The notes under the pieces are model-generated. The model worked only from the letters and a program-made list of their open reading frames with translations. It was not told the origin of the DNA and did no database searches. A stretch of DNA of 64,000 bases from Candidatus Woesebacteria bacterium RIFCSPLOWO2_01_FULL_39_23 (GTDB lineage: Bacteria; Patescibacteriota; Microgenomatia; UBA8517): NCBI GenBank assembly GCA_001793095.1, contig MGHG01000012.1, positions 72,647-136,646 of the forward strand, read 5' to 3'. Position 1 is the first letter of the stretch; each line of letters starts with the position of its first letter. The translations under genes were made by a program, and so were the position numbers. This document shows, piece by piece, positions 1 through 11,336 of this stretch.

Positions 1-1058
1 CTACCAGATCGGAAGAAGGAGATTCCCCAACTGAGAGACAATATACAGGCCAAATCTCAGATTCTGATCAAACAGGCCTCTATTACTACAATGCCAGGTA
101 CTATAATCCTCAAATCGCCAAATTCACTCAAGCAGATTCAAGCAATGACCAACTTAATAGATATGCTTATGTCAACAATAATCCCATTAACTCAACTGAC
201 CCAACAGGTCGTCAGGATTGCAACCCCAACACTGCAGGTGGAAATGCTTACCCGCCTTGGCACCCCTGTGCTTGGGTCTTAATTGGCGAGGAACTAAAAG
301 GATATTGGAACAAAGCTCAGGAGATGGCAGTGGCGTGGGTAAATAACCCAATAGAGTTTAACAAAAACTTAGGCAAAGCGATTGTTCAGACAGCACCTCA
401 AGTGATTGTGTATGCTATTGTGGCAAATTCACAACTCGGACCTCAAGCAGCTGAAGCCCTAGATACAACACTGTGTGCTTTAGCAGCGGACCCAGGGCTG
501 TGTATGATATCAGCCCAGGCATCAGGACCAAATGTAGCTACAAAATTTGACGTAGATGATGTTCCTGGCCGTGCGGGTTTCTTGCAGTCCTCTCAATTAG
601 TAGAAAAGGAGATGGATCCTACTGGAAAGCTGATGATGGTGGGAAGAGAAGAATTATTTGATCAATACGGATTAAGATATGCAAACGGTTTACACGATCC
701 AAATGGTATAACCCTTCGTGCAACAGGCGATTTTTCGCAAATGAACGTAACTTTGCACCACGAATATTTACATGAAATATACGGTAGGGGAGTAGGCCAG
801 TATCAGTCTCTTAACGAGATGGTAGAAAACGAAATTTGGGTTAGGGAAACAATGCTTGGTTACAAAGGGTATGGAAGTGGTTGGGATAGAAAGCTATGGA
901 GTGCCGAGATATCAACCTTTAGACAAATGCTGGACTCAGAAGGAGCTGCCAGAACATGGCTAAACTATACTGGCGGATCTTGGTGGTCAAATGTTTACCA
1001 AAATATGGGTTGGACACACCAGACAGTTAATAGAGTGAAAAAATGGCTTATGGAGTAA
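1..1058 (+). CDS. 3'-terminal part of Rhs/YD-repeat family polymorphic toxin (5' end outside window). Carries the RHS repeat-associated core motif and a variable C-terminal domain with an HExxH motif.
   Basis: Frame 3 is open from nt 3 to the stop at 1058. Translation reads ...QYTGQISDSDQTGLYYYNARYYNPQIAKFTQADSSNDQLNRYAYVNNNPINSTDPTGR, the classic Rhs core signature. The downstream ~290 aa contain LHHEYLHEIYG (HExxH). Confidence 0.7.
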   Translation, partial: TRSEEGDSPTERQYTGQISDSDQTGLYYYNARYYNPQIAKFTQADSSNDQLNRYAYVNNNPINSTDPTGRQDCNPNTAGGNAYPPWHPCAWVLIGEELKGYWNKAQEMAVAWVNNPIEFNKNLGKAIVQTAPQVIVYAIVANSQLGPQAAEALDTTLCALAADPGLCMISAQASGPNVATKFDVDDVPGRAGFLQSSQLVEKEMDPTGKLMMVGREELFDQYGLRYANGLHDPNGITLRATGDFSQMNVTLHHEYLHEIYGRGVGQYQSLNEMVENEIWVRETMLGYKGYGSGWDRKLWSAEISTFRQMLDSEGAARTWLNYTGGSWWSNVYQNMGWTHQTVNRVKKWLME

Positions 1059-1268
1059 ATAAGAGACATTCACACGCCGGGAGATATATATTGATTTTGA
1101 GGGAGAAACTGTGAGACTGGCAAAGAAATATCTACAATAAAGTAAGGACCTGTAATTCCATCTGTCGGGTGGAAAAACTTTGCATCTGGGTTTTTCTTCA
1201 AGTTGCATCAATGCTCCAAAATAGAAATTGTGCTAGGCGTAGAAGGCTTGGAGTGGTAAAATATAAAT

Positions 1269-1568
1269 ATGAAAAAGCTGCCGAAATTATTGAAGAAATA
1301 TTTTTGGGATATTGATTTTGAAAAACTTGATGCAAACAAAAATTCCTTTCTTCTTATTAAGCGTGTTCTAGATAGAGGCAAAACTACCGATATTAAGTGG
1401 CTTATTTCTCACTACGGGACAGAGAAAATAAAAGATGTAGTAACGACAACGCGCGATTTATCAAGACCTACAGGAAACTTTTGGAGATTAATATTTGGTT
1501 TATCTCCTGACCAAGTTCCATGCTTACAAAAGCCTTACTCACCGATACACTTCGGGCAATCAAGCTAG
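1269..1568 (+). CDS. Hypothetical 99-aa protein (FWDIDFEKLD...KWL motif). Possible partner or N-terminal module of the downstream AbiEii-like nucleotidyltransferase.
   Basis: ORF ends inside the next ORF (49-nt overlap, different frame). The motif resembles N-terminal regions I recall fused to AbiEii-family NTases. Confidence 0.4.
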   Translation: MKKLPKLLKKYFWDIDFEKLDANKNSFLLIKRVLDRGKTTDIKWLISHYGTEKIKDVVTTTRDLSRPTGNFWRLIFGLSPDQVPCLQKPYSPIHFGQSS

Positions 1569-2152
1569 TATCAAAGTTACCAACAGTCAAAGAGGCTTAT
1601 CTTGCTGGAGGTACAGCGCTTGCGCTTCATCTTGGTCACAGAATATCGGAGGATTTAGATTTTTTTACAAATCACAATTTTGATGAGCAAGTTCTTTCTT
1701 TAGAGCTTTCAAAATTTAAGGAATTCAGAGAAGAAGGTAAGTCTTGGAAAACTATTTGGGGATGGCTAAGTAAAACAAAATTCAGTATTTTTTATTACAA
1801 ATATCCTCTTATCGAAAAAGCTATCGAATTTGAGGGGATTCGTATTGCAAACAAAGAGGATATTGCAGCCATGAAGATACACGCTATCGAAGAAAGAGGA
1901 ACACGAAGAGATTTTGTGGATGTTTATATCCTAGCTAAGGAGTTCTCATTAGAACAAATGTTTTTGTTCTATGATAAAAAATATGCTGTATTGGAGGATC
2001 ACTTGTATGGAATAATCCGCTCATTAAGTTATTTTGAAGACGCAGAAAAAGAACATCAAATGCCAAAAATGATTGAGTCTGTCTCCTGGGATGAAGTTAA
2101 AAGGTTTTTCGAAAAGGAAGCCGTGCGATTGGGGAGAAAATATTTACATTAG
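1520..2152 (+). CDS. Nucleotidyltransferase, AbiEii/DUF1814-like (type IV TA toxin family)
   Basis: N-terminal YLAGGTALALHLGHRISEDLDFF matches the GG...R.S.D(L/I)DF NTase motif of AbiEii. Confidence 0.6.
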   Translation: MLTKALLTDTLRAIKLVSKLPTVKEAYLAGGTALALHLGHRISEDLDFFTNHNFDEQVLSLELSKFKEFREEGKSWKTIWGWLSKTKFSIFYYKYPLIEKAIEFEGIRIANKEDIAAMKIHAIEERGTRRDFVDVYILAKEFSLEQMFLFYDKKYAVLEDHLYGIIRSLSYFEDAEKEHQMPKMIESVSWDEVKRFFEKEAVRLGRKYLH

Positions 2153-2254
2153 AACTTAAATGTTTAAAGTATGGATAACCTTCTTTCACTAACACTACTA
2201 CGTAGTGGTGTAGTAAGGAAAACATTGTAAATAACGAGTTGTTGTGGTTTAATA

Positions 2255-2935
2255 TTGACTAATATGGCATTTGGGGAGGAGTTACAAAAAGAAGCGGGGG
2301 GTGTTGCTCGAAGGGAATTTCTTCAGCAAAAGCAAGGTTTTCAGTCCCAGTTAAGGGAATTGGTAATTAACAATCCCAATGCGGGAACTATTGCTGGTCT
2401 TAATAATTTGGCTCACACGCTACAATACGAGCTTTATCAGACAAGTGGTATAACTCGGGGAGATTTTGGGAGAGGGATTTCAGGAGCCGGAACCGAATTC
2501 TTAGCACGGGTGCCTGCGACAATGCTAGACAGAGGCTCTATATCTTTAAGTTACGAACGAGGAAATTTAGCCGCTTGGTTTAGAGGAAAAGGTTTAGATG
2601 TCGAAGTGGTGGGAAAAGATAGAGAAGTTCATTGGTCGGGAGGTAGCGGAAAACCAGAATCGAATTATTATTTTAAGAGTGAAGAGCTCAGCCCTGGAGC
2701 CTTAGTGGCAATTTCGGAGCATTTAGCTGTGAGTATAAATAGAAAGGCCGCAGAGTATAAAGATAATCCAGATGACGTAAGAGTCATGTCCATAGCGGCA
2801 GCTATTGCAGGTGTCCTTGGAGAAGAAATAAGGAGTATTGCCGAGACGGGTAGACCGCTAGATGGGGAAACGGCAAAAGCACTTTTAGATAAACCGCTTA
2901 CTGACATTGGCCTTCAAATTACTGAAAGAAAGTAA
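2255..2935 (+). CDS. hypothetical protein
   Basis: 226-aa ORF with no recognisable motif. GC-richer than the core genes, followed by an intrinsic terminator. Confidence 0.4.
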   Translation: MTNMAFGEELQKEAGGVARREFLQQKQGFQSQLRELVINNPNAGTIAGLNNLAHTLQYELYQTSGITRGDFGRGISGAGTEFLARVPATMLDRGSISLSYERGNLAAWFRGKGLDVEVVGKDREVHWSGGSGKPESNYYFKSEELSPGALVAISEHLAVSINRKAAEYKDNPDDVRVMSIAAAIAGVLGEEIRSIAETGRPLDGETAKALLDKPLTDIGLQITERK

Positions 2936-3052
2936 ATACATCTCCTCCTGCCGTTGACTTATAGGGAGCTTCAGAGTAAAATTCAGGAAGAAATATGGAA
3001 GGTTGAGTTTAACTATTTAATTGGATTTTTGAAATTAAGAATAATAGGTATG

Positions 3053-3082
3053 TAGGTGGGAGAAATACCCACCTATTTTTTT
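3053..3082 (+). terminator. Rho-independent terminator (8-bp stem TAGGTGGG/CCCACCTA, loop AGAAATA, T7)
   Basis: Hairpin plus T-run read directly; lies between the hypothetical ORF and nusA. Confidence 0.55.
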
Positions 3083-3163
3083 AAAAGCGATAATTATTAA
3101 AAAAATGAATGCTAAATTTATTATTTATATTTTTGAAATTTAATATATTTTAGCGAAGCATAT

Positions 3164-4324
3164 ATGCAAACACCAAGAACAGAATTTGCGCAAGCACTCA
3201 GGGCAATCGCCACCGAGAGAGGCTTAGACCCTGACGTTATTATCGATGCCGTTAAGCAGGCAATTATTGCCGCGTATAAAAGAGACGCTAAAGATAAAGG
3301 CGAAGACGTAGACACATTTGGCTTTGATGTCGATATTAATCCGGCTAACGGTGAAGCTCGGGTTTTCTCCTGGCCAGTTGAGATCGATGAAGAAGGCAAT
3401 ATAACTGAAGCGAGCCTTACTCCTCCGGCGGATAAGAAAGATGTTACTCCCCCCGGATTTGGCCGAATAGCGGCCCAAATTGCAAAGCAGGTAATTCATC
3501 AAAAAATCAGAGAGGCGGAAAAAGGTGCCTTGATGGATGAATTTTCGACAAGAGTCGGCGGGTTAATATCGGGGATGATCTTAAGATTTGAGGGACCTGA
3601 TATCCGTGTTGATTTGGGTAGAACCGAGGGCATAATGCCCTCCAACGATCGTATTTCCAGTGAACGCCTGAACCCGAATCAAAGATTAACATTCCTTCTC
3701 AAAGACATAATTGAAACCCTGCGTGGGAAGCAAATCATTCTCTCTCGAGCAGACCCGAACTTTGTCCAGAAACTCTTTGAACGAGAGGTTCCTGAAATAG
3801 CTTCTAAATCAGTAATAATAAATGCGATTGCCAGAGAAGCCGGAGTCAGAACTAAAATTGCAGTTTCTTCGAATCAGTCGGGGGTCGATCCGGTTGGGTC
3901 GTGTGTTGGCCAAAAGGGCGTCCGAGTTCAAGCTGTAACCAATGAACTCGGCGGTGAACGTGTTGATATTGTTCCTTATAACGAAAATTTATCGGATTTT
4001 ATAAAAGCAGCACTGCTTCCTGCTGAAAGCTTGACCGTTAAACTAGATAAGAAAAATAACATAGCTGAGGTCGGCGCACCCGAGGATCAGCTTTCCCTTG
4101 CCATCGGTCGTGACGGTCAAAATGTTAAGTTGGCATCAAAGTTGACTGGTTGGAAAATAGATATAAAAGGGGAATCACAGAAGGCACAGAAGAGAACTGA
4201 GGACACTGAGAAAAATTCTGGGGTGGAGAAGATTGTAACAGAGGGAGCAACTGCTCCTAAGTCTGCACCTGCAAAGAAAAAAACAACTAAGAAAACGACT
4301 AAAAAAAGCAAAACTGATAAATGA
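3164..4324 (+). CDS. nusA: Transcription termination/antitermination factor NusA (Lys-rich tail)
   Basis: N-terminal domain, S1 and KH domains (GRDGQNVKLASKLTGWKIDIK). Gene order nusA-infB. Confidence 0.9.
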   Translation: MQTPRTEFAQALRAIATERGLDPDVIIDAVKQAIIAAYKRDAKDKGEDVDTFGFDVDINPANGEARVFSWPVEIDEEGNITEASLTPPADKKDVTPPGFGRIAAQIAKQVIHQKIREAEKGALMDEFSTRVGGLISGMILRFEGPDIRVDLGRTEGIMPSNDRISSERLNPNQRLTFLLKDIIETLRGKQIILSRADPNFVQKLFEREVPEIASKSVIINAIAREAGVRTKIAVSSNQSGVDPVGSCVGQKGVRVQAVTNELGGERVDIVPYNENLSDFIKAALLPAESLTVKLDKKNNIAEVGAPEDQLSLAIGRDGQNVKLASKLTGWKIDIKGESQKAQKRTEDTEKNSGVEKIVTEGATAPKSAPAKKKTTKKTTKKSKTDK

Positions 4325-4354
4325 GAAGTTTGCTGATTGTGACAACTAATTATT

Positions 4355-5806
4355 ATGCTAAAGATGCGAGCACCAATTGTTACCGTTTTGGGACACGTAG
4401 ATCACGGCAAAACTAGCCTCCTGGATGCCTTAAGGAAATCTAATGTGGCCGAGAAAGAAATCGGTGGGATTACTCAAAGTATTGGAGCTTCGCAAATTAC
4501 TACAAAGGCCACCGGCCCAGTCACCGACTCGGAAGAGTCTCTGACTCGGAGAGATGGCCTCAGGCCCGGCGGGAAGAAAATAACTTTTATTGACACCCCC
4601 GGACATGCTGCTTTCAGTAAAATGCGTTCTCGCGGTGCAAAAGTTGCGGATATAGCGATTCTTGTTGTTTCGGCGGATGACGGCGTTAAACCCCAAACAA
4701 AAGAAGCACTATCCTTTATTCTTGAAGAAAAAATTCCTTATATTGTTGCAATTACAAAAATCGATCTTCAATCAGCGGATATCGAAGGAGCAAAGAGAAG
4801 TTTGGCAGATATTGGAGTGCTTTTTGAGGGAGGAGGAGGAAATATTCCGGTTGTACCTCTCTCTGCTAGAACTAAAAAAGGCCTCGATGAGCTTCTCGAG
4901 GTAATTATTTTAGTATCTGAGGTCGAAGATATTAAAGGAGATTCTGCGGGAGAACTTGAAGCTTTTGTTGTTGAAACTAAGAAAGACAAAAGAGGGACCC
5001 TTGTATCGGTAATAGTAAGAAACGGTAGTATTAAGGTCGGCGATCAAATACTCGTTGACGGAGTCTTATCTAAAGTGCGCGGTATATTTGACAGTCAAAA
5101 TAAATCTTTAAGAGAAGTCGGTCCGGGTGAACCTGCGTTGATTCTCGGTTTTGAAAAGATGCCTCCTGTCGGTTCGCCGATTAAACATTGGAAGGGAGAA
5201 GTCATTAGTGTCAAGAATCCTGCAAGATTGCACATTAAAGACGAAGGAACTAAAGAAATGCCAAATATTATTATCAAAGCTCAATCTTCGGGAGTCTTGG
5301 AAGCAATAAGTGAAAACCTACCTGTTGGAGTTAATATTGTCGGAACAGGTATTGGGGATGTAAATGAAAGCGATATATTTAGTGCAAAAGCCGGAAACGC
5401 TAAAATATTTGTTTTTGAGGCTAAGGTTCCTGTAGGTGTTGCAAGACTTGCAGAAATGGAGGGGGTAAAAATCGAAACTTTTAATATAATCTATAGACTT
5501 TTCGAAAGAATAGAGGAACTTAATTCCAAAAAAGAAAAAGTAGTAGGAAAGGCTGAAATTATTGCCGTCTTTCCGTATGAAAATAAGAAAGTCGCTGGAG
5601 GAAAAGTAATCTTGGGAAAGCTTAACCGTCAGGATCAAATAAAAATATTAAGAGGTGAAAAAGAGATAGGGGAGGTAAAAATAATTTCAATGAAAAAAGA
5701 GAAAAAGGATATTTCGCAAGCTTCAGCCGGTGAAGAATTTGGAGTAATTTTTGAACCCCAGCTTGCTTTTACTATAGGAGATGTGCTAGTATCGGTTGCA
5801 AAATAG
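4355..5806 (+). CDS. infB: Translation initiation factor IF-2 (short form, G domain plus C-terminal domains only)
   Basis: [24 protein letters not shown] and TKID G-motifs. Confidence 0.9.
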
Positions 5807-5846
5807 AACATATGCTCTTTGTACTTTGTCGTTTGCACTAATAACA

Positions 5847-6770
5847 ATGGAAGAATCTTTTAAATCACTACTCGATTCGGCAAGATCGATATTAATACTT
5901 CTCCCGACAAATTCCAATCTTGATACGACTGCTTCGGGTCTCTCGTTATATATGGCTCTCAAAGAAGGTAGAAGTGTCGCTATTTCTGCCTCCTCCCCCA
6001 TAACCGTCGAGTTTAATCGCCTGATTGGTATAAATAAAATCGCAACTGAGTTGGGAAATAAGAATTTAGTCATAAGTTTTTATGATTATGAAGCGTCTGA
6101 TATTGAGAGAGTTAGCTATGATATCGAAGACGGCCGTTTCAGACTAACGGTAATCCCCAAACAGGGTATTACTGCCCCCACTAAAGAACAGATAAAGCTT
6201 GCTTATTCCGGAGTTTCGGCAGATACAGTGATTTTAATCGGAGGAGCTAGCGATAAACATTTTCCTTCTATTTTTTCAAAAGATTTATCCGGAGCTAAAC
6301 TTATCCATATCGGTAACCGTGAATTAATAAGCGATCCGTCACGAGGTATTATTTCTTTCTCCGGAATGGCAGCTTCTCTTAGCGAAGTAGTATTAAGTTT
6401 AATAACGGAGATGAATTTGTCAGTTAATCCCGATATTGCAACAAACCTCCTCATGGGAATTGAGTCGGCTACTGATAATTATAAGTCCCCTGAGGTTACG
6501 CCTGGTACTTTTGAAATAACGGCATCTCTTATGCGGGCAGGGGGCAGGAGATTTGCGGCCGCGGGGTTAAACTATGAAAATTTCCCTCCGGGTGCTATTC
6601 CGGGACAAATTCCTCTTCCCCAAACTCAACAAAGCCAACACAAAGTAGTAAAACCACAAACCCCTATTATGCAGGAAGAAGTCGAAGAGTCTGAAAAGCT
6701 GGAAACTATGGAAGAACCGCCTTCCGATTGGCTCCAGCCTAAAATCTATAAAGGGACTTCAATTAGTTAG
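5847..6770 (+). CDS. DHH/DHHA1-family (NrnA-like) protein with degenerate catalytic motifs
   Basis: Architecture and linker (GIESATDNYKSPE) resemble NrnA, but DHH is replaced by DKH and the N-terminal Asp/His ligands are substituted. Start at the MEESFK ATG avoids overlap with infB. Confidence 0.4.
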   Translation: MEESFKSLLDSARSILILLPTNSNLDTTASGLSLYMALKEGRSVAISASSPITVEFNRLIGINKIATELGNKNLVISFYDYEASDIERVSYDIEDGRFRLTVIPKQGITAPTKEQIKLAYSGVSADTVILIGGASDKHFPSIFSKDLSGAKLIHIGNRELISDPSRGIISFSGMAASLSEVVLSLITEMNLSVNPDIATNLLMGIESATDNYKSPEVTPGTFEITASLMRAGGRRFAAAGLNYENFPPGAIPGQIPLPQTQQSQHKVVKPQTPIMQEEVEESEKLETMEEPPSDWLQPKIYKGTSIS

Positions 6771-6884
6771 TTTAAAACACATTGTAATTTGATGATTGGA
6801 AATTTTTTAAAGGTATGATAATATACCGAGGATGACTTCAATGTTATTCGCATAGACGAATTACTTTGATACTCATGACAAGAA

Positions 6885-7154
6885 ATGGCATTACATAAAG
6901 ACGAAAAGCAGGATATTATTAAGAAATTTGCCCGCGAGAAAGGTGATACAGGTTCTCCAGAAGTTCAAATTGCGCTTCTGACTGTGAAGATTGATAAACT
7001 TGCAACCCACCTTAGAGAACATAAAAAAGATATTCATTCAAGACGCGGACTTTTATCAATGGTTGCTAAAAGACGAAGACTATTAAATTATTTGAAGAAG
7101 AGAAGTGAGGAAAGATACTTAAGCCTCATTAAAGAAGTTAAATTAGAAAAATAA
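6885..7154 (+). CDS. rpsO: 30S ribosomal protein S15
   Basis: Full-length S15 similarity. Confidence 0.9.
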
Positions 7155-7157
7155 TAA

Positions 7158-9464
7158 ATGGCTACAAATACGTCGTCCAAAGGACGATCGACCTCTGGTC
7201 AAAAGAAGATAGAGAAATCGGTTGACATCGGGGGAAGAAAACTAACTATTTCCACAGGAAATTTAGCCGGTCAGGCAAACGCAGCGGTTCTGGCTTCGTA
7301 TGGTGAAACGGTAGTACTTGCTACAGTCGTATCATCTCCTCTAAAGGTTGATCTGGGTTATTTTCCTTTGACTGTTGAATATCAGGAGAGACTTTATGCG
7401 GGAGGAAGAATTAAGGGAAGCCGTTGGGTAAAAAGAGAAGGCAGGCCAACAGACGAGGAAATTTTAATCGGAAGATTAATCGACAGATCCGTTCGTCCAC
7501 TTTTCCCTAAAGGTTATAAAGAAGATGTACAACTAATTATAACTTTACTGTCTGTAGATACAGAAAATGCACCTGAGACGGTTGCTGGGGTTGCCGCTTC
7601 GTCTGCATTGGCAATTTCCGATATTCCTTGGGCTGGCCCTATAGGTATCGTCAAGGTGGGATTGATCGAAGACAAATTTATAGCAAATCCAGCTACCGAG
7701 GACATGTCAAAGTCGCAGTTGAACTTGACAGTTTCTTCAACCAATGAAGCAATCGTAATGATCGAGGCAGGTGGCAATGAAGTAACCGAGGAAACAATGT
7801 TAAAAGGGATTGAATATGGACAAAAAGAGAGCCAGACGGTAATAGGTTTAATTAATGATTTAGTAAGTGCCGTCGGTAAGGAAAAAAAGGCAGTAAGGTA
7901 TGAGATATTAAATGCTGATGGACAAAAGAAAGTTAAGGAGCTTGCTAAGGAAGCAATAAAGTCTTTAGTTGCCCAAATGGCTACAAAGGAAGCTGACTAT
8001 GTAGCTTTTGACGCAGCTCGGGGTAGTGTTGTAGCAAACTTTGATGATAAAGAAAAATCACTGGTTGGAGGGTATTTTGATGATTTGTTTAAAGAGGAAG
8101 TACGAGATGTTATTTTGTCGGGTAAAAGACCGGATGGAAGAAAACCCGATGAAATAAGGTCACTTTCGGCTGAGGTAAGTGTATTACCTCGAACTCACGG
8201 CTCGGCAATATTCAATCGAGGACAGACACAAGCACTTACGATTGCAACATTAGGAGCGCCATCTCTGGAGCAAACAATTGAATCCGCTGAGGGAGACGTT
8301 AATAAAAGATATATCCATCACTATTCAATGCCGCCTTTTTCGACAGGTGAAACCGGAAGAATAGGATCTCCTAATAGGCGTGAAATAGGGCACGGAGCAC
8401 TGGCCGAAAGGGCTCTTTTACCGGTAATTCCGGCTGAGGAAGATTTTCCTTATACCATAAGAATGGTAACGGAAATATTATCCTCGAATGGTTCTACTAG
8501 CATGGCTTCTACTTGCGGGTCCACTCTTGCTTTGATGGATGCCGGTGTCCCGATTAAAAAACCCGTTGCCGGAATAGCAGTGGGACTGATAATCGAGGAT
8601 GATAAAAAGTTTGCTATTTTGACAGATATTGTCGGTATAGAAGACGGTAATGGTGATATGGACTTTAAAGTTGCCGGAACAGAGACTGGCATCACCGCGC
8701 TACAGCTCGACGTTAAAACTCTCAGCTTAACATCAGCAATATTGGGTAAAGCTCTAGAGCAATCTAAAAAAGCAAGAATCGAGATTTTGAGTGTTATGAA
8801 TAAAGCTTTAGGTACACCTCGAGCTCACGTATCAGCCCATGCTCCAAAAATCAAAATAATTAAGATTGATGTTGAAAAAATAGGTGATGTGATAGGTTCG
8901 GGAGGAAGAACAATCAAAGGCATAATAGCTACGAGCGGAGCCCAAGTTGACGTTAATGATGACGGGAGGGTATTTATTTCCTCACAAACTGAAGAGGCAA
9001 CGGCTAAGGCAATCGCACAAATAGAAGGTTTAACAAAAGATCCACTACCCGGAGAAGTTTATGACGGTGTAGTCAAGCGAGTTCAACCTTTTGGTGCTTT
9101 TGTAGAAATACTGCCTGGAAGAGAAGGATTAGTACATGTATCAGATATGCGTGAGGATTTTGTCAGTAATCCCTACGATGTAGTTAGAGTTGGAGAGAGC
9201 GTTAAAGTTCGGGTTAAAGAAATTGATGAGCTGGGGAGACTTAATCTGTCAATGCTTCTTTCGGGGGATAAAAAGACTGAAAATGGAGGAAGAAGACGCA
9301 CTGAATTTAATAATTTCGGAAAATACGCACGGCCTCAAAGGGACGATCAAAGAAGGGGCGGCATGAGGCGTAATGACAGACGAGGTAATTATTCAAATTT
9401 CTCAGGACCTCACTTTCCTACAAGCAGACTAATAGATGAATCCCGCAAGAAATTTGACCGTTAA
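7158..9464 (+). CDS. pnp: Polynucleotide phosphorylase with RG-rich C-terminal extension
   Basis: Two RNase PH domains plus KH and S1 domains. ~65-aa Arg/Gly-rich tail. Confidence 0.9.
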   Translation: MATNTSSKGRSTSGQKKIEKSVDIGGRKLTISTGNLAGQANAAVLASYGETVVLATVVSSPLKVDLGYFPLTVEYQERLYAGGRIKGSRWVKREGRPTDEEILIGRLIDRSVRPLFPKGYKEDVQLIITLLSVDTENAPETVAGVAASSALAISDIPWAGPIGIVKVGLIEDKFIANPATEDMSKSQLNLTVSSTNEAIVMIEAGGNEVTEETMLKGIEYGQKESQTVIGLINDLVSAVGKEKKAVRYEILNADGQKKVKELAKEAIKSLVAQMATKEADYVAFDAARGSVVANFDDKEKSLVGGYFDDLFKEEVRDVILSGKRPDGRKPDEIRSLSAEVSVLPRTHGSAIFNRGQTQALTIATLGAPSLEQTIESAEGDVNKRYIHHYSMPPFSTGETGRIGSPNRREIGHGALAERALLPVIPAEEDFPYTIRMVTEILSSNGSTSMASTCGSTLALMDAGVPIKKPVAGIAVGLIIEDDKKFAILTDIVGIEDGNGDMDFKVAGTETGITALQLDVKTLSLTSAILGKALEQSKKARIEILSVMNKALGTPRAHVSAHAPKIKIIKIDVEKIGDVIGSGGRTIKGIIATSGAQVDVNDDGRVFISSQTEEATAKAIAQIEGLTKDPLPGEVYDGVVKRVQPFGAFVEILPGREGLVHVSDMREDFVSNPYDVVRVGESVKVRVKEIDELGRLNLSMLLSGDKKTENGGRRRTEFNNFGKYARPQRDDQRRGGMRRNDRRGNYSNFSGPHFPTSRLIDESRKKFDR

Positions 9465-9540: not shown

Positions 9541-10593
9541 ATGCCAGTAAATGCCGCTGAAGAACAGCTGAAAGTACTCGCTCAAAAAATTAGTTCAGCA
9601 AAATTACCCAAAGATTTGCAGGAAACTGTGAACGTTAGACTTGACCAGTTAGGAAGATTGACTGCATCGGCTTCATTTTTACCTGAACTTGATAGAATCA
9701 GCCGCTATATTGAATGGGTTATAAACCTCCCGTGGTTTAACCGAACTCAGGATAATCTTGATCTGACTCATGCAAAATCTATATTAGATAAAAATCATTT
9801 TGGCTTGTCTGAAATTAAAGACAGAATTTTGGAATATATGTCGGTAATGAAGCTTAAACAAGAAACGGGTGAAAAAGAAGGCATGATGCGGGCACCACTA
9901 CTATGTTTCGTCGGCTTGGTCGGAACCGGTAAAACAACGATAGCTGCCTCAATTGCCGAAGCACTGGGAAGAGAATTTGTGCGTATACCTTTTGGAGGAA
10001 TGGAGAGCCCCTTGGATCTCAGAGGCCAGTCAAGGGTTCAACCGGAAGCCGAGCCCGGTAAGATAATAAAAGGCTTAAGAGTGGCTAAAGCAAAAAACCC
10101 GGTGATTCTACTTGATGAAATCGATAGGGTTACTGAAGCCGGACGTGCTTCCATTATGGGAGTTCTTGTCGAACTTCTCGATCCGGAGCAAAATTATGCG
10201 TATGTGGATTATTATGTTGATTACCCATTTGATTTATCTGAAGTTTTATTTGTAGCAACTGCCAATAATACTCACCATATTGCAACAGCCGTACTCGATA
10301 GGTTGGAGCCGATAGCTATGCCCTCGTATTCCGACTTTGAGAAGATTACAGTAGGACGAGACTATATGTTCCCTAAAATATTAAAGAATTCCGGAATTCC
10401 GAAGGATGCCCTCCAGATTACAGAAGAAGTTTGGCCGCAAATTGTAAGACCGTTAGGGTTTGATGCAGGGACCAGAACTCTCGAACGCACAATTACCGGC
10501 ATGACCAGAAAAGTTGCTAGATTAATAGTTGAAGGGAAAGGAGATAAGTACATCATTACTCCCCAGAATGTTAAAGAATTCCTCCCAAGATGA
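9541..10593 (+). CDS. Lon-like AAA+ ATPase module without N-domain or S16 protease domain
   Basis: Alignment to the Lon ATPase region: LD..H.GL..IK.RILEY, Walker A GLVGTGKTT, Walker B ILLDEIDR, VELLDPEQN, ATANN. ORF ends with TGA then TAG, and no protease domain follows. Confidence 0.7.
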   Translation: MPVNAAEEQLKVLAQKISSAKLPKDLQETVNVRLDQLGRLTASASFLPELDRISRYIEWVINLPWFNRTQDNLDLTHAKSILDKNHFGLSEIKDRILEYMSVMKLKQETGEKEGMMRAPLLCFVGLVGTGKTTIAASIAEALGREFVRIPFGGMESPLDLRGQSRVQPEAEPGKIIKGLRVAKAKNPVILLDEIDRVTEAGRASIMGVLVELLDPEQNYAYVDYYVDYPFDLSEVLFVATANNTHHIATAVLDRLEPIAMPSYSDFEKITVGRDYMFPKILKNSGIPKDALQITEEVWPQIVRPLGFDAGTRTLERTITGMTRKVARLIVEGKGDKYIITPQNVKEFLPR

Positions 10594-10709
10594 GCTAGAA
10601 TATAAGAGTGAAAGAGTTGAAGAGTGTAAGTATTAATATTTTTTTAAATTCAAAATTCTAAATTAACTTTTACTCTCACGCTCTCCTGCTCTTTTACTCT
10701 ACTAAAATT

Positions 10710-11336
10710 ATGGATAAAAAGCAAAAACTTGAGGAATTAAGAAATAAAATGAAAAGTGATCAGTCATTACCCCTTCGACAGGGTGCAACAAATCTTGCGT
10801 TTGGTGATGGGGATCCAGAATCAGAATTATTATTTATCGGTGAGGGGCCGGGGTATTGGGAAGATATGAAAGGCATTCCGTTTGTCGGAAATGCCGGAGC
10901 TTTATTAAATCAACTTTTATCTTTAATTGGTATACCGAGAAATAAGATCTATATTACAAACGTGATTCATTATAGAGCCCCCGAAAACCGCGATCCTGAT
11001 CCGTCAGAAATAAATGCCTTTAAGCCGTATTTGGATGGAATAATAAAAATTATTGACCCTAAAGTAATTATAACCCTAGGGCGTTTTTCAATGGCGAAAT
11101 TTTTACCTGGGGTTATGATTAGTAATGTCCATGGAAAACCAAGTATGGTTGATGTAAACGGAAAAGAGATAACTATTGTTCCGATGTATCACCCCGCCGC
11201 GGCTTTAAGAAACGGTGAGGTAAAACTTAAACTGAAAAATGATTTTTTAAAACTTCCTGAAATATTAACATCGACTAACAATGATAAAAAAAATGATAAG
11301 ATTACTAAAAAGGAAGAACAAATGAACTTGATATAA
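10710..11336 (+). CDS. udg: Uracil-DNA glycosylase, family 4
   Basis: GEGPG...PFVGNAG and HPAAAL motifs. Confidence 0.8.
   Translation: MDKKQKLEELRNKMKSDQSLPLRQGATNLAFGDGDPESELLFIGEGPGYWEDMKGIPFVGNAGALLNQLLSLIGIPRNKIYITNVIHYRAPENRDPDPSEINAFKPYLDGIIKIIDPKVIITLGRFSMAKFLPGVMISNVHGKPSMVDVNGKEITIVPMYHPAAALRNGEVKLKLKNDFLKLPEILTSTNNDKKNDKITKKEEQMNLI

Follow-up and report, generated by a model that had tools for sequence, protein, structure and literature searches.

The DNA analysed here is a window of 64,000 nucleotides from contig MGHG01000012.1 of Candidatus Woesebacteria bacterium RIFCSPLOWO2_01_FULL_39_23 (positions 72,647 to 136,646), and the gene in question lies at its very beginning. The genome derives from the Rifle aquifer. 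Entries with sequences exactly equal to the NusA, S15 and AbiEii proteins of the window belong to this organism and to 'uncultured Microgenomates bacterium Rifle_16ft_4', which agrees with the episymbiont-type genome presumed in the initial annotation; genes next to the toxin gene have the accessions OGM13844 and OGM13846. The plus-strand frame that is open from nt 3 runs through the TAA at 1056–1058 and comprises 351 codons; the initial 79 codons of the gene, with the ATG, the signal anchor and the start of the Rhs plug, fall outside the window, upstream of it. The part inside the window encodes the end of the plug, a pre-toxin module and a toxin domain with an HExxH motif. The gene truly encodes a polymorphic toxin, with an unusual plug-only, Sec-targeted architecture, a conserved gluzincin-like motif and a toxin domain that has no classified relatives. 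Judged from its sequence, the product would be a Sec-exported, self-cleaving pro-toxin that releases a metallopeptidase active outside the producer, a proposal whose chances we consider evenly balanced.

Architecture of the gene and its Rhs plug

The last 69 aa of the plug (the aspartyl-protease core) are encoded by nt 3–209 of the plus strand. In a profile scan, residues 8–69 of the frame matched TIGR03696 (Rhs_assc_core) with E 1.4e-19 and 70 bits (cut-off 32.5), and the matching part includes YTGQ..TGLYYYNARYYNPQIAKF..NRYAYVNNNPINSTDPTG, in agreement with the initial annotation of this DNA, which had placed an Rhs-associated core in this frame. For the full open reading frame (ORF), recovered from a longer contig, the match had E 2.3e-21 and covered profile positions 1–75 of 76, with the core directly preceding the variable tip. 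No second Rhs core was found elsewhere in the 64-kb window.

The missing 5′ part of the gene is present on the Joint Genome Institute contig L001, which is 99.77% identical to window positions 1–8585 and reaches 10 kb further upstream. In L001 the gene is a separate ORF of 431 aa (9959–11254) with its own ATG, located 2 nt past the stop codon of an upstream YD-repeat gene and in another frame. Its N-terminus consists of a positively charged stretch and a hydrophobic run, ILPVILIIGLVAGVILV, followed directly by SLYYIHSDNLGS..., the start of the Rhs core. RHS_repeat and YD_repeat matches were absent from the 431-aa ORF, so that no YD shell lies in the same polypeptide. The first description of the gene as the C-terminus of a long YD-repeat protein thus has to be abandoned. 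Extension of the sequence upstream, suggested at that stage as a way to recover the YD body and a trafficking domain, did uncover YD repeats, but in separate upstream ORFs and not in the same protein. Fusion of the upstream YD ORF with the toxin ORF by read-through or frameshift was also considered. It was rejected for L001 and for the Amesbacteria locus L007, because in both the downstream ORF is in another frame and starts with an ATG and a signal sequence of its own; for a second Amesbacteria locus (L008), in which the plug and the C-terminal region lie in the +1 frame, such a fusion is possible.

The upstream YD gene of L001 consists of two ORFs. ORF A (1547 aa) has an N-terminal hydrophobic signal and matches RHS_repeat (E 5.8e-23) and YD_repeat (E 7.9e-16), and in ORF B (652 aa) further YD repeats are followed by Pro/Thr linkers, Cys-rich segments and a DUF1554 domain (E 5e-12). 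A one-base frameshift alone (L001 7998–8044) splits ORF A from ORF B; it may be a sequencing error, a pseudogene mutation or a programmed shift. In L008 the homologue of ORF A+B is one continuous ORF of 1867 aa. The DUF1554, or endostatin-like, domain lies in the C-terminal part of ORF B (L001 8700–9956), at the place where a canonical Rhs protein has its plug, and the whole end of linkers, Cys-rich segments and DUF1554 is possibly an adhesion module.

To place the plug among solved structures, we used phmmer searches against the PDB. The mature N-terminal ~105 aa aligned end-to-end with the last ~105–110 aa before the toxin regions of TccC3, TccC2 and YenC2 (E 8e-15 to 3e-13), whereas Rhs proteins of type VI secretion systems matched less well than these TcC proteins (E 1e-7 to 4e-4). 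In the solved Rhs1 the corresponding segment is the C-terminal plug, an aspartyl autoprotease; cleavage comes after the second DPLGL motif and needs its Asp, and the D1338N substitution abolishes it (PMC8636562). In the Woesebacteria protein a paired-Asp autoprotease motif, QAD...(21 aa)...DPTG, stands at the junction of core and tip, and both Asp are invariant in eight cores (alignment A3) of the short Rhs genes treated below, which we call mini-Rhs. Asp45 (in QADSS; nt 135–137, plus strand) corresponds to the first Asp in the Rhs/TcC motif pair and aligns with the D of 'SSDPAG' in TccC3. DPTG (nt 198–209, plus strand), the second DPxG motif, has invariant D, P and G, aligns with DPDG of TccC3 and is the predicted self-cleavage site. 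The released C-terminal region is predicted to begin at or just past Arg70, canonical DPxGL sites being cleaved one residue further on; its new N-terminus would read RQDCNPN... Because of the alignment to TcC plugs and the conserved Asp pair, we read the protein as consisting of signal, plug and C-terminal region.

The C-terminal region and its HExxH domain

Past DPTG the protein continues for 282 aa. The first part of this region is a pre-toxin module of ~109 aa (residues 70–178; nt 210–536, plus strand) with four Cys (C..WHPC and TTLCALAADPGLC) and a hydrophobic helix, for which no Pfam match was obtained. The module is common to mini-Rhs proteins with unrelated tips. It is 43% identical to that of protein P0003, in which a Transglut_core-like domain follows (a weak, sub-threshold match, E 0.019), it stands before a Methyltransf_11 tip (E 9e-6) in L008, and local phmmer matches were obtained to L008, L002 and L012. 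The same core and pre-toxin module thus bear other tips in P0003 and L008, as expected from the variable C-terminal domain that the initial annotation had described; its existence was borne out, and the length of ~290 aa then given for it is corrected here to 282 aa.

The toxin domain proper (nt 537–1058, plus strand; 173 aa and the stop codon) belongs to an orphan family with the pattern HExxH...E...Y, assembled by HMMER search and from individual loci. Among 1.84 billion cluster representatives, an exhaustive HMMER search retrieved, besides P0002 with its identical cassette, only three related clusters, P0004, P0005 and P0006 (E 2e-6 to 7e-5), and one repeat-protein false positive. A word-indexed homologue search with a 6-sequence alignment gave zero matches, and a pattern scan of genome contigs for the toxin domain revealed no relative. 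Four further members came from the core-based scan described below and from reading of loci: gene 2 of L002 (with a near-identical copy in L012), gene 1 of L011 and gene 3 of L007. Only ~7 distinct homologues were found, all of them on mini-Rhs scaffolds.

In the alignment of seven sequences (A7), in which the relatives are 11–30% identical to the window protein, only I58, L73, H75, E76, H79, E99 and Y144 (domain numbering) are invariant. Three of these residues lie in HEYLH (His253, Glu254 and His257 of the frame; nt 759–773, plus strand), which falls in a predicted helix (71–82) and is predicted to provide zinc ligands and the catalytic base. E99 corresponds to Glu277 (in ENEIWV; nt 831–833, plus strand) on the next predicted helix (92–108) and is the predicted third zinc ligand, and Y144 to Tyr322 (nt 966–968, plus strand) in the C-terminal helical part, whose role is presumed only. 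Glu residues occur at +15, +18, +20 and +25 from the second His of HEYLH; the invariant one, within a [SN]E[IL][FWY]V motif, is at +20 in the window and at +15 to +33 in the relatives. Thermolysin has an equal +20 spacing (H146 to E166), and this spacing is near the M1 pattern HExxH-x18-E. By chance, an HExxH would be expected in 282 aa in ~1% of proteins. The HExxH with a downstream Glu had been pointed out at the outset; with H, E, H and Glu invariant in 7/7 homologues, conservation of the two His, proposed then as a check, is now established. Altogether, the invariant set is like a gluzincin signature, with HExxH-x19-E in the window protein.

An AlphaFold model of the domain has the order helix, short strands, HExxH helix and Glu helix, with an unreliable strand region, and this order would be compatible with a gluzincin. 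HExxH is also present in non-peptidase metallohydrolases, and the domain shows no similarity to peptidase profiles or solved zincins. Both points count for an alternative that we consider unlikely, namely that the domain is a non-peptidase metal-dependent enzyme or a non-catalytic metal-binding module, with a target that may be intracellular and with immunity encoded elsewhere in the genome or replaced by intrinsic resistance; the pre-toxin module, with its hydrophobic helix, could then be a translocation device. The combination of HExxH, a Glu at +20 on the next helix and a strand just before the motif helix speaks against it, as this is the classical gluzincin arrangement. Set against it as well are other tips on the same scaffolds, in which we detected only weak, sub-threshold matches to cysteine peptidases (Peptidase_C39-like, E 9e-5 to 0.03; Transglut_core, E 0.019).

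Short Rhs genes in Microgenomates and their surroundings

For a wider view of this gene type, the core alignment was scanned against one genome per GTDB species. The closest cores (55–71% identical) came from metagenome-assembled genomes (MAGs) of Amesbacteria, Woesebacteria, Gottesmanbacteria and Roizmanbacteria, from one Patescibacteria single-cell genome and from a few evidently mislabelled MAG contigs. At all of these loci (L007–L023) merely 1–123 aa, mostly 25–110, lie upstream of the core, whereas more distant cores (45–55%) from outside the candidate phyla radiation (CPR) mostly have 1000–2000 aa of shell. Most complete short proteins carry a signal peptide. In type 1 it is a classical one, ending AxA right before [ST]LxY[IV]HxDHLGS, and in type 2 the signal peptide is followed by one YD unit (e.g., P0002, P0004 and P0006). 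The mini-Rhs proteins of L008 and L018 are those in which no signal peptide was seen. On the same core and pre-toxin module the tips are polymorphic: HExxH, weakly transglutaminase-like, methyltransferase or unknown. Tandem arrays of 2–4 signal-peptide mini-Rhs genes with different tips were observed in L002 (50–7465), L007 (3478–7053) and L015 (5878–8421); the Peptidase_C39-like and Transglut_core matches mentioned above belong to such array tips, most of which have no Pfam match. Mini-Rhs is thus a lineage-specific class, common in Microgenomates, and the remark in the initial annotation that polymorphic toxins are unusual in a genome of this kind does not hold, as all the nearest cores belong to such short genes, often in tandem. 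The class is not described in the literature that we searched on Rhs and polymorphic toxins in CPR, Patescibacteria, Microgenomates and Saccharibacteria.

Several Microgenomates-type mini-Rhs contigs (L012, L014, L017–L019 and L021) come from MAGs that bear the title 'uncultured Gammaproteobacteria' or 'Pseudomonadales'. As far as it extends, a Roizmanbacteria contig is identical to L014, which suggests mis-binning or mislabelling.

Cassettes have moved between scaffolds. The cassette of P0002 is 100% identical to that of the window over the recovered part (the C-terminus of P0002 is incomplete), and it sits on a different, type 2 scaffold, which shows recombination at the core; the point at which identity begins lies ~20 residues from the core start and no more than five residues from ERQYTGQISD. 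L012 and L002 are the same, except that an ATPase and the third mini-Rhs gene are missing from L012. Such cassette differences are typical rearrangement-hotspot behaviour. Instead of encoding a working secreted protein, the gene could be a silent or decaying cassette, either an orphan Rhs tip that does no more than supply a full-length rhs gene with material for recombination, or a remnant of gene fission that is being lost. The identical cassette on the other N-terminal scaffold would fit this idea, as would the position directly downstream of a large YD gene, like that of enterobacterial orphan rhs tips, the frameshifted shell gene of L001, a homologue in L003 frameshifted in a (GA)14 run, and the missing signal peptide in L008. 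Yet the window gene has an unbroken ORF that starts with an ATG and a signal anchor of its own, and signal peptides are placed exactly at the start of the plug in most complete relatives, across several candidate phyla. Moreover, a cassette would find no core to replace in the upstream shell genes, which are coreless, and catalytic-type residues are invariant at 11–30% identity, which implies selection on the protein. We regard a silent cassette as quite improbable, and a secreted pro-toxin as the better account of the gene.

Coreless YD ORFs homologous to ORF A+B lie upstream of plug-toxin genes in four other MAGs (L007, L008, L010 and L011). L007 has three tandem mini-Rhs genes; the shell before them ends in ...YYFSGKLVAVRKK*, and the stop codon TGA of the shell and the ATG of the first of them overlap (ATGA). 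Two mini-Rhs genes come after the shell in L010 (Gottesmanbacteria), and also in L011 (Woesebacteria), where a 309-aa ORF stands in between. The pattern looks as if an ancestral full-length Rhs gene had been split at the boundary of shell and plug, and the tight coupling leaves room for shell and plug-toxin products that still work together. The corresponding hypothesis, by analogy with TcB and TcC, is a two-part Rhs. The coreless YD shell, product of the gene immediately upstream, would be open at its C-terminal end and would there receive the plug of the exported, non-autonomous mini-Rhs, so that plug-toxin cartridges would be exchangeable on the same shell. We consider it rather unlikely, although a number of observations speak for it. 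The ORF A+B homologues stop at the last YD strand or carry an added domain behind it, in either case without a core; the plug-toxin gene comes immediately after the shell in L001, L007, L008 and L010; the overlap in L007 indicates translational coupling, and the gap in L001 is as short as the 2 nt given above; the shell proteins, too, have N-terminal hydrophobic signals; and among solved structures the plug is best matched by TcC proteins, whose partner TcB is a separate protein with which they form one cocoon. On the other hand, L003 and L015 have mini-Rhs genes and no shell gene within 6 kb, and the L001 shell gene is itself frameshifted. The C-terminal regions have 210–290 aa (23–32 kDa), compared with 9–20 kDa typical of encapsulated Rhs toxins (PMC8636562). 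In addition, loading of an already folded shell outside the cell lacks precedent.

Downstream, exactly 210 nt (1059–1268) separate the window gene from the next one. As initially reported, this gap contains no immunity ORF. It holds only weak overlapping ORFs, and no promoter or terminator signal above shuffled expectation was found in it. The next two genes, both on the plus strand, encode a DUF6922 protein of 99 aa (1269–1568; PF21956, E 2e-19), the presumed antitoxin partner, and an AbiEii-family nucleotidyltransferase toxin of 210 aa (1520–2152; PF08843, E 4.7e-15), named 'AbiEii/AbiGii toxin family protein' in sources. They overlap by 49 nt and form an AbiE-type (type IV) toxin-antitoxin pair, in which the partner is DUF6922 and not AbiEi. 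The same pair also follows mini-Rhs genes in L002 and L012.

A small immunity ORF, for which a comparison of related loci had been proposed, was not found among the small ORFs of the 210-nt gap, in the alignment of the gap with L012 and L002, or in an all-versus-all comparison of the downstream ORFs at seven family loci. Across these loci, the DUF6922/AbiEii pair (window and L012) was the only one shared between lineages. Elsewhere, the downstream position is taken by a 195-aa ORF without Pfam match and an AbiEii gene (L004 and L005; AbiEii, E 1.2e-21), MntA/HepT (L011; E 7.8e-18 and 1.1e-32), an AAA_14/DUF4143 ATPase (L002), a LysM-M23 gene (L003) or a convergent gene (L007), and tandem mini-Rhs genes abut with no ORF between them. 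DUF6922/AbiEii itself was considered as the immunity function and rejected, as it is a self-contained toxin-antitoxin module and unrelated toxin-antitoxin types take its place in other lineages. The mini-Rhs class as a whole is without cognate immunity genes.

In at least four lineages, mini-Rhs genes are directly followed by two-gene toxin-antitoxin modules with a nucleotidyltransferase-fold protein, and such genes often flank a module on both sides. The modules are of three types (DUF6922/AbiEii, 195-aa ORF plus AbiEii, and MntA/HepT) and lie at 1269–2152 in the window, 1219–2129 in L012, 5350–6254 in L002, 910–2209 in L004 and 5041–5678 in L011. They may keep the repeat-prone arrays of cassettes from being deleted by recombination, or may simply mark a hotspot of selfish elements. 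Between the toxin-antitoxin pair of the window and nusA lies an ORF of 226 aa (2255–2935) that is conserved in L001; it had no Pfam or NCBIfam match, and its exact sequence was absent from the protein collection searched. Long ORFs of the 64-kb window are almost all on the plus strand, and no Rfam match at the gathering threshold (tRNA, rRNA or riboswitch) was found in it.

Proposed mode of action and relation to known systems

Taken together, the features of the gene suggest the following course of events for the secreted pro-toxin. The Sec system would export the protein, as indicated by its hydrophobic N-terminus and the classical signal peptides of its relatives; the plug would then cut at DPTG, as the conserved Asp pair suggests, and the freed domain would act as a zinc metallopeptidase outside the producer cytoplasm, on surface proteins of a host or competitor or on cell-wall peptides. 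The architecture, the toxin family, the conserved motif and the genomic context are observed; export, cleavage, peptidase activity and target are deduced. The four Cys of the pre-toxin module fit an extracytoplasmic protein. From the lack of immunity genes, the signal peptides and the Cys pairs, we infer that the tips act outside the producer cytoplasm, which would in turn explain why no family member has an adjacent immunity gene.

A number of results weigh against this course of events. Concerning the enzyme, neither the C-terminal region nor any family member had a relevant match, or one to a peptidase profile, in Pfam and NCBIfam at up to E = 10, and PDB searches of the C-terminal region with single sequence or profile were equally negative. 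The AlphaFold models are of low confidence, with a predicted local distance difference test score (pLDDT) of 61 and a predicted template modelling score of 0.61 for the toxin domain and a pLDDT of 46 for the whole C-terminal region. A Foldseek search of the model against the PDB gave no match with E < 1 (best E 1.7), and owing to this and to the low model confidence the zincin fold is unproven. With regard to export, the N-terminus of the 431-aa ORF is without a clear AxA cleavage site, and the protein may stay membrane-anchored; the mini-Rhs of L008, with the same pre-toxin module and a methyltransferase C-terminal domain, lacks a signal peptide. As for release, we know of no precedent for self-cleavage by a plug without its shell. 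The missing immunity gene is negative evidence only. Finally, in L003 the HExxH mini-Rhs gene is split into two frames (9843–9872) by the (GA)14 run, located in the plug-coding region and read as 'RERERER'; the split could be a phase-variation switch or an assembly artefact.

Comparison with known systems underlines what is unusual in mini-Rhs. Like TcC proteins (TccC3, YenC2), the window protein has a plug followed by a variable toxin after DPxG, and TcC also shares its shell with a separately encoded TcB. TcC, however, bears ~600 aa of YD shell and no signal peptide, acts with TcA and TcB and carries ADP-ribosyltransferase toxins, whereas in mini-Rhs just the ~105-aa plug is left, with a predicted Sec-type signal for export. 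The Sec-dependent Rhs/WapA toxins of monoderm bacteria likewise combine an N-terminal Sec signal, an Rhs core and a polymorphic C-terminal toxin, but WapA includes the full YD shell in its own polypeptide and comes with a cognate immunity gene, and both are missing for the window gene. Enterobacterial orphan rhs-CT modules are also short core-plus-tip cassettes after a main YD gene and exchange by recombination in the core, as seen here for P0002 versus the window and L002 versus L012. Those orphans have no start codons or signal peptides, possess immunity genes and follow a main gene with its own core and tip; in contrast, most mini-Rhs cassettes encode signal peptides, immunity genes are missing and the main gene is coreless. 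With gluzincins (thermolysin-type and minimal gluzincins) and Tox-MPTase the toxin domain shares the HExxH with a Glu 20 residues past the second His on the next, predicted helix, and the use as a toxin tip. It differs from them in having no detectable sequence relationship to Pfam peptidase or Tox-MPTase models, and its zincin fold is putative.

CPR/Patescibacteria are thought to live attached to host cells, and their effector repertoire is almost unknown. In this context, a broader scenario can be outlined, to which we assign a rather low probability. Microgenomates may have split Rhs into a shared, exported, plugless YD cocoon and exchangeable signal-peptide plug-toxin cartridges that complete it outside the cell; these would serve as immunity-free weapons against the episymbiont's host, with the HExxH protein as one cartridge, and the interspersed toxin-antitoxin modules would protect the arrays from recombinational loss.

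In Woesebacteria and related Microgenomates, gene arrays encode Rhs derivatives that are plug-only and Sec-targeted and whose tips are mostly unclassified; one tip family has a clean zinc-protease signature and no known relatives. That these genes have no immunity partners points to targets outside the producer, possibly in the envelope of the host. Should self-cleavage of the plug-only proteins occur, their ~105-aa Rhs plug would amount to a minimal autoproteolytic release module; should they instead dock into a separate coreless shell, this would represent a new, modular way of loading the Rhs cocoon.

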